Sequence record: NC_054924.1
Length of the DNA: 64,000 bases
DNA from: Escherichia phage vB_EcoM_Lutter
Reading direction: 5' to 3' (one strand)
A model generated the notes under the pieces. The model did not search any database, was not told the origin of the DNA, and saw only the letters and a list, made by a program, of their open reading frames with translations. Of this stretch, positions 32,445 through 43,037 are shown piece by piece. A program made the translations under genes and the position numbers. The number at the start of each line of letters is the position of its first letter. Position 1 is the stretch's first letter.

Positions 32445-33023
32445 TTAATTACCACGGGCTGCATTAGCAACGGCATAAGCGTACTGAACATTAGCGTCCT
32501 TAAACGTACCTTTAGAGGTATCTATTTCTGCCTTAAAGCCGCCTTTAGCCATAACATCGGCAAATTCTTTACGGAAAGCCATTGCATCAAGACCTTTCCA
32601 TGATGATTTGTGCTTAGCGAATTCAAGACCAGCGTAGTTGACAGCCTTAGCTAATTTATTATCAATGACCCATTTACCGGCTTTAGGCACAAACTTCGGG
32701 CCTTTTTGTTTAGAGAACAGTTTTAAATTCCAGCGACGAAGATCACTGTCGGCTTTAACAAAAGCTGCGTCTAAGTTACTAGCAACAACATCTTCAATAT
32801 GAGCAAATTTAAGTCCGTCAACTTCAATATTTAAATCGGTACGCCAGCGAAGTCCTTCCCAAGCGAAAGCTTTAAAGTCAGAAGCCTTTGTAGCTAAGTA
32901 TCGTTCAATAGGAGCTGTTTTAGGGTCAAAGCCGTTTCCCGATCGATAGGTCCACTCATCTTTATTAATGCCTTTGGCCTTTTCCACAGAAGCTTCAGCG
33001 ATAAATTCTTTATACGTTTTCAT
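32445..33023 (-). CDS. head internal protein with capsid targeting sequence
   Basis: 192 aa; N-terminus MKTYKEFIAEA. Confidence 0.7.
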   Translation of the reverse strand: MKTYKEFIAEASVEKAKGINKDEWTYRSGNGFDPKTAPIERYLATKASDFKAFAWEGLRWRTDLNIEVDGLKFAHIEDVVASNLDAAFVKADSDLRRWNLKLFSKQKGPKFVPKAGKWVIDNKLAKAVNYAGLEFAKHKSSWKGLDAMAFRKEFADVMAKGGFKAEIDTSKGTFKDANVQYAYAVANAARGN

Positions 33024-33053
33024 TTTTGTTTCCTTGTTTGTTTTGATAGAGTA

Positions 33054-33082
33054 ATTATACCATATTAATACTTAAGCGTAAA
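33054..33082 (-). promoter_or_regulatory. sigma-70-type promoter upstream of internal protein gene
   Basis: TTTACG-17-TGG-TATAAT. Confidence 0.5.
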
Positions 33083-33086
33083 CCGT

Positions 33087-33348
33087 TTAAGCTTCACCGC
33101 CAGAAATAATTCCGAAGTTGTTAAAATCGTATCCAATATCGTCAACATCTACTTTAGGACTTGTAGCAACATAAGCAATTTCACTGCGTTTTGCATAGGT
33201 GTTGATTTCTTTACCATCACCACCTAAGAAAAAAATACCCATTACGTTTTAATGAGCCAAAATCTTCGGCATCACCAACGAAAGCTTTAACTTTAAATTT
33301 GGGGCCTTTGGCATCTGCTTCAGCGATAAATTCTTGATACATTTTCAT
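33087..33348 (-). pseudogene. frameshifted internal-protein gene
   Basis: MKMYQEFIAEADAKGPKF... halts after an A7/T7 run at 33229-33235; one fewer base gives an ~86-aa ORF to the TAA at 33087. Confidence 0.5.
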
Positions 33349-33354
33349 TTTTCC

Positions 33355-33768
33355 TTAGTAAATTGATTTACCATAGTATTTGTACCAAGTCGGACGTTGA
33401 GCAATTTTTTCATCTAAGCGTGCTTGACTTATCGCAATGGACGCTTCGGACGGGACATAATTATTACGAAATTCGGCAGGGATGTCGGAAATATCCTGGA
33501 CTGTCGTGTCCTTGATTTTGAAACCACGTTTCAAGCATTCGGCGATTAGCTCGATTTGTCGTAAACGTAAAAATTCAAGTTTGTCGTAAAAGAATGTTAC
33601 GTGACCTGTGCCTAAGATAAATGTTGGAGAGATTTTAAAATCCTTTACACGTTTACCGTTTTGAACATGTTTACGGACTGCACCAAATACGCGTGGTAAT
33701 TCACGATACTCAGCCATAAGATGTTGGTCGGTCAGTTCAGAAACAAGTGTTAAATTGATACGAGTCAT
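33355..33768 (-). CDS. denV: endonuclease V (pyrimidine dimer DNA glycosylase)
   Basis: 137 aa from [12 protein letters not shown]...; T4 DenV size. Confidence 0.88.
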
Positions 33769-33795
33769 AATTTCCTCCAAGTAGTTGATGAATGT

Positions 33796-33824
33796 ATAGT
33801 ATCAAAACCCTTGGAGGAAGTAAA
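33796..33824 (-). promoter_or_regulatory. early promoter upstream of denV
   Basis: TTTACT-17-TACTAT; spacer holds the arm complementary to the denV ribosome-binding site. Confidence 0.6.
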
Positions 33825-33827
33825 CAA

Positions 33828-34124
33828 CTATTTTTCTGAAGCGCCTGAAATATATTTTTCAAGACGTTGTTTCATCAGCGAGCCGTTCTTAGCGATTTCT
33901 TCCGGTTTATCGCACATACGCAACAAGGCTTCAAGCTTAACGATATCACTGGTGCGCTCAAATTTGCGAGTATCTATCTTACTAGCAAGTTCAGAAATAC
34001 GTGCTAATAGACTTTCGGCTTCAACCAAAGCTGCACCTAGCTTAGTTGCAAATGTGTCAGTAGCTTCGTTAAGAATAGATTCTGATAAAAATTCACTATA
34101 TGTTTTCATATATACGCTTTCCAA
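33828..34124 (-). CDS. head internal protein with capsid targeting sequence
   Basis: 98 aa; [11 protein letters not shown]; paralog of 42780-43037. Confidence 0.65.
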
Positions 34125-34594
34125 GTTCCTGTTTTAAATGTTGAGATTACGCGTTTCGCGCGATTAGGTGTCTGACGATACCATTTAGATTGGGCTAGAT
34201 TTACTGCTGCTTCATCCCAGCGTTTTTGTTGGAGCATACGTAAAGAATTAGTAAATCCTGCCACGCCGGTTTCTCCCATTTGAAAAACCATATTAATTAA
34301 TGCACAGCGGCGAACAGCATCAAGAGAATCATAAACTGGTTTTAATTTAGCATTTCTCAGAATTCCGCGAACAGCAGCATCGACATCCTGATTAAAGAGT
34401 TTTTCAGCCTCGTCTTTTGTAATTACACCATTGCAATTACGCCCAATAGCTTTATCTAATTCAGATTTAGCAACGCTTAGTGATGGACTTTTAGTAAGCA
34501 AATGACCAATGCCAATAGTGTAATAACCTTCTGTGTCTTTATAGATTTTAAGTCTAAGACCTTCATCTATACGTAACATTTCAAATATATTCAT
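34106..34594 (-). CDS. e: lysozyme (endolysin)
   Basis: 162 aa; [33 protein letters not shown]; near-identical to T4 lysozyme with scattered substitutions. Confidence 0.95.
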
Positions 34595-41036: not shown

Positions 41037-41123
41037 TGGTGCGAGAAGTGGGACTCGAACCCACAAGGAAATCATTCCGCAGCATTTTAAGTGCTGTGCC
41101 TTTACCAATTTGACCATTCTCGC
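41037..41123 (-). tRNA. tRNA-Leu (anticodon UAA), long variable arm
   Basis: Acceptor GCGAGAA/UUCUCGC, anticodon loop CUUAAAA, CCA encoded. Confidence 0.85.
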
Positions 41124-41129
41124 GCTATA

Positions 41130-41762
41130 TTATTTATTACGTGAAAAAGACTGTTCTATCAATTCTGGACACTTTCGTTCTATCCATTTTCTAGCTTTTT
41201 GTGGGCTTATACCTATTATTTTAGCAGCTTTACTAACCCATCCAAATTTAGAATAATCGATTTTAACTAATTCTTCGTAAATTTCATCAGTTAAAATCTT
41301 TTCATTAATATTTACCAGTAAATGATATAATTTATTATCATTAGCAATTTTAATGAATCTTTTATAGTTTCCGCCTTTACTTAAACCTAATGAAGTAATT
41401 GCAGATGATATAGTAGCCGAATTTAATAGTGCGTTTAAAATTTCTTCATCACTAACATTATAACGCTTTTTATTATTTTTAATATTTTTACCAGCAAAAG
41501 TATCAGTTTGCGAATGGCAGTTTGGACATAATAATCTTAAATTTGATTTAAGATGATTTTTGTTATTTCCATCAATATGGTCTAATTGCAGAACAATATG
41601 CTTATTTTGCCATTTTGAAATTTTACAAATTGCACACTCATATGGAAAAATATTTTCTTTTATTATTTTGTCTTTCAGCTTTCCTGTACTAAAATTTGGA
41701 TGTTTTCCTTCAAAAATTTCAGCTAATTTAGTATCCATAATATGATTCCCAATTATTAACAA
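41130..41762 (-). CDS. HNH homing endonuclease at head of tRNA cluster
   Basis: 210 aa; CAIC...LQLDHIDGNNKNH...LLCPNCH HNH/zinc motif. Confidence 0.65.
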   Translation of the reverse strand: MLIIGNHIMDTKLAEIFEGKHPNFSTGKLKDKIIKENIFPYECAICKISKWQNKHIVLQLDHIDGNNKNHLKSNLRLLCPNCHSQTDTFAGKNIKNNKKRYNVSDEEILNALLNSATISSAITSLGLSKGGNYKRFIKIANDNKLYHLLVNINEKILTDEIYEELVKIDYSKFGWVSKAAKIIGISPQKARKWIERKCPELIEQSFSRNK

Positions 41763-41848
41763 AGGCTCTCAAACAAGAACCCTTGATGATAGAGGGTATT
41801 AATCAGTGCGGTATGAGTTAATAATAACAAATAATTCTTAAAGCATAT

Positions 41849-42142
41849 TTACCATTTATGATAATACATATTTACGATGCATTCAAGACCCAAAGGATTC
41901 TTGAAAATATCATATTCAAGAGGACCTTTTTCTGTTTCAATAAAGAAATCAAAATTTACTGTATTAAATTTACGGTCTTCCTTTACTAATTTAACTTGTG
42001 AAGATGAACGGTCAATGTAAACCTTTTCAACTTCAAAATATGTTAAAATGCCATAATCATCAATCAAGGCTTTAGCCGCGTCTTGATCATATTTATATCC
42101 ATTTTCAATGGACGATACTTTCGCATAAAGAATCATTATCAA
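41849..42142 (-). CDS. hypothetical protein (97 aa)
   Basis: ORF. Confidence 0.5.
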   Translation of the reverse strand: MIMILYAKVSSIENGYKYDQDAAKALIDDYGILTYFEVEKVYIDRSSSQVKLVKEDRKFNTVNFDFFIETEKGPLEYDIFKNPLGLECIVNMYYHKW

Positions 42143-42531
42143 CCTTCATCAACAATAGTATGCGTATTGGCATTTACAATTTGCCACCAATCAAAGCGAT
42201 TAGAACCATAATCTGGTTTGTTTTCATTTTCTTTGATAATGTCACGGAGTTCATCTTCAGTGGCGGCTTTCGCGATTAAATCAGCATATCCACCACGAGG
42301 ATAATAATTATCACCTGCAAAAAGTAAAAAGTTTGGTTTAATGTTATTGAACTCTTCAAGAGTAATAACTGTTCCTGATGGTAGTTGAACAATCTCTACA
42401 TATTTATATCCCAATTTTTGAGCAGCATCTACTGCTTCAAGCAAAGTATCATGAGCCCATCCAATTTGACAACCTGGCTTTTCAGATGGATTAGCCTGAT
42501 AATCCGCATACACTTTATACATTCTATTCAC
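42139..42531 (-). CDS. hypothetical protein (130 aa)
   Basis: ORF. Confidence 0.5.
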   Translation of the reverse strand: MNRMYKVYADYQANPSEKPGCQIGWAHDTLLEAVDAAQKLGYKYVEIVQLPSGTVITLEEFNNIKPNFLLFAGDNYYPRGGYADLIAKAATEDELRDIIKENENKPDYGSNRFDWWQIVNANTHTIVDEG

Positions 42532-42709
42532 CTTTAGAAATTTTATCCATAACGATAGCGATTAAACCAATTAAAAATGCTACTACAAGTGAAAAAACGT
42601 TTTCTGCTGTAGTCAATAATCCGCATATAAATCCAACAAACATTGAAAAACTAAAAGCAGAAGCAGAAATTGCAATAGCAACATTTCGAATTAATTCACA
42701 ACGTTTCAT
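42524..42709 (-). CDS. small membrane protein (61 aa)
   Basis: Two hydrophobic helices; downstream of early promoter 42738-42766. Confidence 0.45.
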   Translation of the reverse strand: MKRCELIRNVAIAISASAFSFSMFVGFICGLLTTAENVFSLVVAFLIGLIAIVMDKISKGE

Positions 42710-42737
42710 TTTATTCTCCTCAGTAGTTGATAGGGTA

Positions 42738-42766
42738 ATAGTATCACAACTAAAACCCTATGTAAA
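42738..42766 (-). promoter_or_regulatory. early promoter
   Basis: TTTACA-17-TACTAT flanked by inverted repeat ATAGGGT/ACCCTAT. Confidence 0.6.
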
Positions 42767-42779
42767 CAACTTTGTGAAA

Positions 42780-43037
42780 TTATTTTAAATCTTCTAATCG
42801 TTTCTTCATCTTAGAACCATTTTTAGCAATTTCTCCTGCATCGGAGCATAACGCTAAAAGTGCTTTAACTTTAGTTTGGTCTCCTTTAAAAGACGAAGGA
42901 TCGACCGCAGCAGCAAGTTCTTTAATACGAGAGAAAAGACGCTCAGCTTCAGCTAAAGCCATTCCAAGCTTTACTTCCATACCGTGAGAAGATTCAGTAA
43001 TAGTAGTTTTTGTAGCAAACTCTTTGAAAGTTTTCAT
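42780..43037 (-). CDS. internal protein (ipI position) with capsid targeting sequence
   Basis: 85 aa; MKTFKEFATK; shares EIAKNGSxMKxRLE with 33828-34124. Confidence 0.6.
   Translation of the reverse strand: MKTFKEFATKTTITESSHGMEVKLGMALAEAERLFSRIKELAAAVDPSSFKGDQTKVKALLALCSDAGEIAKNGSKMKKRLEDLK

Follow-up and report, generated by a model that had tools for sequence, protein, structure and literature searches.

Probable internal-protein genes with a shared capsid-targeting leader and exchangeable bodies in the T4-like phage vB_EcoM_Lutter

Five loci in a 64-kb stretch of the genome of Escherichia phage vB_EcoM_Lutter (NC_054924.1; the whole stretch of 64,000 nucleotides (nt) is referred to as the window) encode proteins that start with similar short leaders and continue with different bodies. 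Judging from their leaders, predicted processing sites and homologues, these loci very probably belong to the internal-protein (ip) genes known from T4-like phages, here in a Tequatrovirus. Names or catalogue entries as internal proteins already exist for four of them (IPIII, Ip5, phrog_3499 and phrog_2667), and the gene for a protein of 157 amino acids (aa), which has no such match, is the sole unannotated candidate. In ipIII, sequence comparison places a recombination joint at the end of the 30 nt that encode the leader.

In phage T4, the first ten residues of IPIII, the capsid targeting sequence (CTS), are necessary and sufficient for loading into the prohead, and suppressor analysis assigned targeting mainly to residues 4 and 7 and processing to residues 8 and 10 (PMC9026906). 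The prohead protease gp21 cleaves after L/I-x-E (PMC9026906). Internal proteins are diverse defence proteins with only the CTS in common, and about 1000 internal-protein molecules are embedded in the DNA of T4 (PMC3012670).

Results

Five leaders in the window

The 12.6 kb around the loci matched more than 1200 records of T4-like phages, none of them identical, the closest being Escherichia phage JoYop (Tequatrovirus; 94% identity over 90% of the query). The window has the gene content of T-even phages (endonuclease V, lysozyme e, nudE, e.2-e.8, a tRNA cluster, 57B, 57A, gene 1 and baseplate genes), and all genes between 31 and 46 kb lie on the minus strand.

A six-frame search of the whole 64 kb with the regular expression MK.[YF].[EQ]F returned exactly five matches, all at the starts of open reading frames (ORFs) on the minus strand (Table 1), against a chance level of 0.07 matches on average and 1 at most in 60 order-1 Markov simulations. 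Only 0.004 ORFs of at least 60 aa with such a start would be expected. Relaxed leader patterns yielded no further CTS gene candidates in the window. The five loci with a common leader described in an earlier, sequence-only reading of this DNA were thus borne out. Its pattern M-K-x-[YF]-x-[EQ]-F-[ILA]-x-E holds for four of the leaders, whereas the fifth, that of Ip5 (MKTFKEFATK TTITE), has Ala8 and Lys10 where the pattern calls for [ILA]-x-E.

All five proteins have the residues assigned to targeting by the rule from T4 IPIII (PMC9026906), namely Tyr4 or Phe4 together with Phe7. Leu or Ile at position 8 and Glu at position 10 occur in four leaders, and Ip5 resembles T4 IPI, with I-T-E at 13-15. 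Site prediction placed an L/I-x-E site for gp21 in each of the five proteins, at positions 8-10 and/or 13-15, in agreement with the earlier proposal that the leaders are substrates of the prohead protease.

Beyond the leaders, an all-against-all BLASTP comparison of the bodies found only two related pairs, namely the IPIII proteins of the window and T4, and the 93-aa and 85-aa proteins of the window (48% identity overall, 54% over the body, E 1e-24). The proposals that the latter two are paralogues and that the remaining bodies are unrelated past the leader were both upheld. Four of the five predicted mature proteins are basic (pI 8.1-9.6) and resemble T4 IPI-III computed in the same way: IPIII (182 aa, 20.3 kDa, pI 9.6), the 93-aa protein (8.6 kDa), the 157-aa protein (about 142 aa, 15.5 kDa, pI 9.6) and Ip5 (70 aa, 7.5 kDa, pI 9.2). 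No Pfam family was found for any of the five proteins, and sequence searches of the PDB returned nothing for IPIII, Ip5 or the profile of the 157-aa protein. One PDB match to a designer PPR protein (E 2e-6) was discarded, as it covered a low-complexity stretch of 22 residues.

Two ip loci are recognised in T4-like phages (57B-trna.4 and e-denV/vs.8), and they hold four of the five genes; the 157-aa gene lies elsewhere. Members of the family usually lie in an ip locus, but the mechanism does not depend on this.

A recombination joint where the CTS-coding part of ipIII ends

Within an otherwise Tequatrovirus genome, a block of 1.6 kb (34627-32994) is 92% identical to phage RB69 (Mosigvirus). It comprises e, the 93-aa gene, denV (which shares just 79% identity with its T4 counterpart), the 86-aa gene, and the promoter, ribosome-binding site and ten CTS codons of RB69 ORF124c. 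The gene order e, ip, denV, ip is that of RB69, in which both of these ip genes are annotated as internal head protein. Past the CTS codons the window resembles ipIII of T4 (93%), whereas the upstream region of ipIII in T4 itself is different. Because RB69-like DNA stops and T4-ipIII-like DNA begins at the next codon, the alignments place the recombination joint at the end of the CTS-coding stretch, and the IPIII of the window therefore starts with MKTYKEFIAE, as does RB69 ORF124c, rather than with MKTYQEFIAE as in T4. A joint in this position confirms cassette exchange. The DNA of the leader and its ribosome-binding site forms a repeat family (D1) shared by three of the loci. RB69 ORF124c (MKTYKEFIAES..., 2825-3097) and ORF123c (MKTYQEFIAAV..., 3166-3495) both have CTS-type leaders and are hypothetical in RefSeq.

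The predicted gp21 site of IPIII is IAE10 (MKTYKEFIAE/A; slashes mark predicted cuts). Directly upstream of ipIII, early-type promoters were the only kind recognised by motif match, as was also the case upstream of ip5. The downstream neighbour of ipIII (31866-32315, minus strand; phrog_1488), which encodes 195 aa in JoYop, has lost one T from a TTTT run near 31885 and is thereby frameshifted in the window; in T2 it is likewise in pieces. ipII, which JoYop and T4 have between ipIII and this gene, is not present there in the window.

The 93-aa gene and ip5

The ATG of the 93-aa gene overlaps the stop codon of the late lysozyme gene e as ATGA, and the RB69 orthologue is also directly coupled to e. 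The start had previously been placed at a TTG (34124, giving 33828-34124); the ATG at 34109 is most likely the start. The leader (MKTYSEF… followed by SILNE/A) offers two candidate sites, LSE10 and LNE15. Since the RB69 orthologue has lost the first site (MKTYMNFYQN) and keeps only LNE15, residue 16 is likely to be the mature N-terminus in the Ip5 family. The two TATAAATA motifs upstream of e, if they are late promoters, would serve the coupled 93-aa gene as well.

The 85-aa protein is identical to Ip5 of phage RB15, and its identity to the product of the T2 gene is 98.8%. The RB15 sequence, GenBank Z35082, is entitled "Bacteriophage RB15 DNA for Ip5, Ip9, Ip7, Ip8", and a note in that record puts the locus between 57B and tRNA.4. 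ip5 takes the position of ipI in T4, between 57B and trna.4, where JoYop has Ip7 and T4 has IPI. Homology to T4 at this locus covers 57B and the promoter, reaches ~35 nt into the leader, breaks off there, and resumes right past the ip5 stop codon. The leader is of the IPI type (MKTFKEFATKTTITE/S) with a single predicted site, ITE15; the leader of T4 IPI is MKTFKEFTSTTTPVSTITE, with I-T-E at 17-19. A promoter/stem-loop element occurs on both sides of ip5 (Table 1), and a weaker PeSL-like (promoter-early/stem-loop) copy (61%) lies at 38480-38548, upstream of e.8. The AlphaFold2 model of Ip5 (pLDDT 80) has three helices, and a Foldseek search against the PDB gave generic helical matches only (E > 3).

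A frameshifted internal-head-protein gene

The sequence-only reading had called the gene at 33087-33348 frameshifted, and comparison with intact alleles bears this out for the sequence as it stands: the window has a T7 run at this site, IME340, the closest intact allele, has T6, and RB69 and JoYop have TTCTTT. As written, the sequence yields a 43-aa product with the CTS and a separate downstream ORF. The repaired 86-aa product is 92% identical to RB69p125; the intact allele has the leader MKMYQEFIAE/A with the predicted site IAE10, and its product is acidic (pI 4.9). In a sample of 40 out of 215 records, 37 have the gene intact.

As the cause of the frameshift, genuine decay of genes that the phage can dispense with is slightly favoured, because the essential baseplate genes keep their T4 lengths and a second accessory gene is frameshifted too. 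It is also possible, if less than probable, that the seventh T arose as a homopolymer error during sequencing or assembly and that the actual phage has an intact gene. The site is a T6 run turned into T7, one of only three homopolymers of at least 7 nt in the 64-kb window; extra T aside, the allele differs from that of IME340 at two bases; and the few other broken database records are broken at different homopolymers. An error-prone sequence, however, would not readily account for long essential baseplate genes that are all exactly of T4 length, nor for the second frameshift 1.3 kb downstream (32315-31866), where a T4 run became T3, a short run that is not error-prone. Slippage heterogeneity at the T7 run is a minor possibility. 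Programmed frameshifting, or a contingency locus at this run, was considered and dropped, the run itself being its sole support; a preprint on phage contingency loci shows zero variation at the single ip-gene repeat that it presents (T2 ipIV).

A candidate internal protein at a third locus

The 157-aa protein is probably a genuine packaged internal protein, on the evidence of its leader and gene layout. The leader, MKSYTQFLNE/AVLNE/A, contains two candidate sites, LNE10 and LNE15. The gene lies between e.8 and the tRNA/stable-RNA cluster and was found in 510 records of Tequatrovirus, Jiaodavirus and other T4-like phages. Word-indexed and exhaustive hidden Markov model profile searches showed the family to be narrow, with 13 matches among 1.8 billion representatives in the exhaustive search, which found no informative fusion partner. 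Among the full-length relatives in that library (to E 1e-4), an aromatic-x-x-F-L followed by [LIM]-x-E is always kept. The bodies diverge to about 36-40% identity or less, and the start remains M-x-x-[YF]-x-x-F-L-x-E, with leaders such as MKSYAQFLNE, MLKFNEFLAE, MINFSDFLNE, MKSFSSFLNE and MLEYSEFLKE, and MKFKEFLAE, which is one residue shorter. The positions that are invariant in this family are those that are functional in IPIII.

Upstream of the gene, a strong terminator hairpin (39237-39214), TTTTTAGTATAAATA and a GGAAA ribosome-binding site follow one another in the 5' to 3' direction. The homologue in a Klebsiella Jiaodavirus, which lies downstream of tRNA genes, shows the same layout of terminator, TTTTTAGTATAAATA, ribosome-binding site and leader with a different hairpin sequence. 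A second copy of the terminator lies downstream of the gene in the window. In T4 only one copy is present and precisely the 520 bp between the two are missing; T2 also lacks the 157-aa gene.

The AlphaFold2 model of the 157-aa protein (pLDDT 73) is all-helical with two predicted domains, an N-terminal domain (about residues 18-78) and a C-terminal helical hairpin, joined by a Pro/Lys-rich linker. The N-terminal domain is the conserved part (…AGKYSYKDxSDESRFQFARDMKAEGF…), and the C-terminal hairpin is swapped for unrelated sequence in the relatives from Yersinia and Klebsiella phages. Foldseek comparison of the model with the PDB found generic helical matches only (E > 3). The structure prediction called for earlier thus produced helical models, for this protein as for Ip5, with no informative fold match.

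An A5 run (38880-38884, minus strand, after the codons for AQEK) is the place where database relatives are recurrently truncated, by a −1 shift in Shigella phage SfPhi01 P0006 and P0014 and by a +1 shift in P0008. Phage G28 matches the 157-aa protein in two pieces, and all of these retain the leader and the N-terminal domain. The run, which lies at the domain boundary, could be a frameshift hot-spot or a recurrent sequencing error, and shifts there could allow switching between the full-length form and one with the N-terminal domain only.

The T2 protein of the same length encoded after e and annotated "internal virion protein", which we take to be ipIV, was considered as a relative and proved to be unrelated. 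The 157-aa family had no match to Ip5, Ip7, Ip8 or Ip9 of RB15 or to this putative ipIV. We found no virion proteomics paper that could be linked to the family, and internal proteins are not discussed in Petrov 2010.

Several observations weigh against counting this protein among the internal proteins. The gene is outside both recognised ip loci, and each of the 45 records listed, out of 510, either calls the protein hypothetical or leaves it without annotation. Some relatives read FLMTE (L-M-T-E), which departs from strict L/I-x-E. The TATAAATA motif is not enriched in the window (13 found against 10.8 expected), and the late-promoter calls are putative ones made from position and conservation. 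The structural model is of moderate confidence and has no informative fold match.

The location of the gene and the lack of an Ip annotation in the records listed would suit a protein that is not head-internal, acts late in the infected cell, and acquired its leader by recombination with an ip leader or by convergence. Leaders demonstrably move by recombination, repeat family D1 included, and neither a structural nor a family match points to a function. We nevertheless consider such a role unlikely. The leader is kept at functionally defined positions in at least two genera, even where the bodies share only about 36-40% identity or less, and an unselected hitch-hiking leader would decay. A late promoter also suits a virion component, and the predicted mature part is basic, as in the T4 internal proteins. 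On balance we lean towards the fuller reading, in which the 157-aa protein would be packaged from a third ip site, on a terminator/late-promoter/terminator cassette and with an exchangeable C-terminal domain, and would be a new anti-defence effector.

Neighbouring genes

The window has eight tRNAs and JoYop has nine, and two ORFs lie within or next to the tRNA cluster of the window. An ORF at 40252-40737 (minus strand; 161 aa, phrog_16521, of unknown function) stands where JoYop has tRNA-Thr; its product is weakly related to the C-terminal half of a 210-aa HNH endonuclease encoded at 41130-41762 (minus strand), just upstream of tRNA-Leu. A 114-aa ORF (39549-39893, minus strand; phrog_3355, of unknown function) lies between tRNA-Arg and the region homologous to T4 rnaC/rnaD. 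Rfam models matched only tRNAs in 38.4-41.3 kb, and none matched stable RNAs near the rnaC/rnaD region.

Table 1 Internal-protein genes, leader matches and associated elements in the window.
Feature	Position	Strand	Basis or note
ipIII, 192 aa	32445..33023	−	96% identity of the body to T4 IPIII; E 6e-118 to phrog_5341 ("internal virion protein")
30 nt coding for ipIII CTS; RB69-like to T4-like switch at 3' end	32994..33023	−	blastn break-points and four-way alignment
Predicted promoter upstream of ipIII, early, sigma-70 type, TG-extended (TTTACG-17-TATAAT); RB69-ORF124c-like DNA	33054..33082	−	
Internal-head-protein gene, frameshifted	33087..33348	−	phrog_2667 "internal head protein"; RB69p125 orthologue annotated internal head protein
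T7 homopolymer (A7 on + strand), +1 frameshift site	33229..33235	−	T6 in closest intact allele (IME340); TTCTTT in RB69/JoYop
Ip5 paralogue, 93 aa	33828..34109	−	phrog_3499 "internal head protein", E 1e-46; RB69p127 at same position
Two TATAAATA putative late-promoter motifs upstream of e	34608..34628	−	Motif match
Downstream copy of terminator, 86% identical	38650..38685	−	Repeat comparison
157-aa CTS-bearing protein, candidate internal protein	38690..39163	−	phrog_2280, function unknown
TATAAATA putative late-promoter motif, 37 nt upstream of 157-aa ATG	39200..39207	−	Motif match
Upstream intrinsic terminator copy, 10-bp stem, 7 GC pairs	39205..39240	−	Repeat family D6
Second copy (83%) of promoter/stem-loop element, immediately downstream of ip5	42727..42795	−	Repeat family D2
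ip5, 85 aa	42780..43037	−	100% identical to RB15 Ip5 (GenBank Z35082); flanks homologous to T4 ipI flanks
Predicted early promoter and stem-loop (PeSL-like), upstream of ip5	43057..43125	−	Repeat family D2
Leader matches (ORF starts)	33023, 33348, 34109, 39163, 43037	−	Six-frame regular expression

Discussion

Proposed mechanism and function

It is established, as the sequence-only reading stated, that T4 injects proteins of this kind and that anti-restriction factors are among them. Type IV restriction enzymes of the GmrSD group are inhibited by Ip1, Ip2 and Ip3, a different one by each and with no cross-protection, and T4 Ip3 blocks the GmrSD of strain ECOR17 (PMC12373910). Infection of ECOR17 by T4 requires IPIII, and IPIII that lacks the CTS works when supplied in the cell (PMC9391042). 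The 1994 study of Repoila et al. is reported to have described at least ten internal proteins (PMC12373910).

By analogy with T4, where it is established, the first ~10 residues (M-K-x-Y/F-x-x-F-L/I-x-E) would act as the CTS and attach the protein, while still nascent, to the scaffolding core inside the prohead. gp21 would cut after L/I-x-E, at E10 in IPIII and the 86-aa protein, at E10 and/or E15 in the 93-aa and 157-aa proteins, and at E15 in Ip5. The small, mostly basic mature proteins would remain in the head with the DNA, be injected along with it, and act in the cell as a first response against host defences. For IPIII, given its 96% identity to T4 Ip3, the target would be a type IV restriction enzyme of the GmrSD type such as that of ECOR17. 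In evolution, the leader tag would be tied to the locus and the body would be exchangeable cargo: promoter, ribosome-binding site and leader would stay, and the cargo would be swapped by recombination in the leader and in the flanking promoter/terminator repeats. The 86-aa gene would have been inactivated by a one-base slip in the T run, and the 157-aa gene would be a further member on its own late-promoter cassette.

Two considerations count against this scheme: packaging, cleavage and injection of these particular proteins are read from sequence, and a screen of Ip4-10, Ip5 among them, against 15 GmrSD groups found no reproducible inhibition (PMC12373910), so that an anti-GmrSD role of the members not found in T4 is hypothetical. 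The earlier description of the non-conserved members as candidate new injected effectors narrows to the 157-aa protein, four of the five having been catalogued and Ip4-10 screened already.

The same screen would also agree with a mainly physical role, in which internal proteins neutralise charge and organise the packaged DNA and their diversity reflects neutral drift of dispensable basic proteins. Four of the five predicted mature proteins are indeed basic, some 1000 internal-protein molecules lie within T4 DNA (PMC3012670), and one of the five genes reads as a pseudogene here. We regard this explanation as improbable, given that a specific GmrSD target is known for each of Ip1, Ip2 and Ip3 (PMC12373910) and that rescue of infection by host-expressed IPIII without its CTS points to action in the cytoplasm (PMC9391042). 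The replacement of whole cassettes in close relatives (Ip5 here, Ip7 in JoYop, IPI in T4) also suggests arms-race turnover instead of drift, and the 86-aa protein is acidic.

That a conserved CTS can precede very different cargoes has been known for three decades, since 1994, and the window adds no new principle. It does provide a clean natural case of cargo exchange, with the joint at the end of the CTS-coding stretch, and the CTS is a handle for loading foreign proteins into T4 heads. Internal proteins enter with the DNA and therefore encounter host immunity before any other phage factor does, and the set of ip genes helps determine the host range of T-even phages, which is relevant to phage-therapy cocktails. 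The inventory of this phage consists of IPIII, Ip5, a paralogue of the latter and an 86-aa gene that is probably dead, with the 157-aa candidate besides. It includes neither IPI nor IPII, and sensitivity to the GmrSD variants neutralised by Ip1 and Ip2 is therefore predicted. The 157-aa protein is a widespread candidate that could join the panels screened against type IV restriction and other defences.

Comparison with known systems

The genes of the window share with T4 IPI, IPII and IPIII the same leader and the same predicted gp21 site, and four of the five share the T4 ip loci (57B-trna.4 for ipI, and the e/denV-adjacent locus for ipII and ipIII). IPIII is the orthologue of T4 IPIII, and ip5 stands on the promoter and flanks of T4 ipI. 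Unlike T4, the window has no ipI or ipII, and its gene order is the RB69-like e, ip93, denV, ip86, ipIII, compared with e, ipIII, ipII, denV in T4.

In the Ip4-Ip12 series of T-even phages, reportedly described by Repoila, Tétart, Bouet and Krisch in 1994, the CTS is said to be conserved and unrelated bodies to be swapped between phages. The 85-aa protein of the window is Ip5 of this series itself, and the 93-aa protein is a paralogue of it. RB15 has four ip genes at the 57B-tRNA.4 locus (ip5-ip9-ip7-ip8), whereas the window has only ip5.

The PeSL cassettes of T4-like phages, reportedly treated by Arbiol in 2010, offer a second parallel. Two 83%-identical copies of an early promoter/stem-loop element flank ip5, two copies of a terminator hairpin flank the 157-aa gene, and the segment missing in T4 that carries this gene sits precisely between repeats. 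The exchange seen here is the modular shuffling that Repoila reportedly proposed in 1994 and that the work on PeSL mobile regulatory cassettes of T4-like phages also put forward (Comeau 2014, PMC4122927). It differs in that the putative promoter of the 157-aa cassette (TATAAATA) is late, not early, and in that the ipIII joint lies within coding sequence, the CTS, and not in an intergenic element.

Giant phages (phiKZ, 201phi2-1 and SPN3US) also have head-internal proteins that are targeted to the head by N-terminal propeptides, which are removed after Glu by a gp21-related protease (PMC9026906). Their ejection and inner-body proteins are much larger, have the cleavage motif S/A-x-E and show no sequence relation to the proteins of the window, so that the likeness would be one of analogy only.

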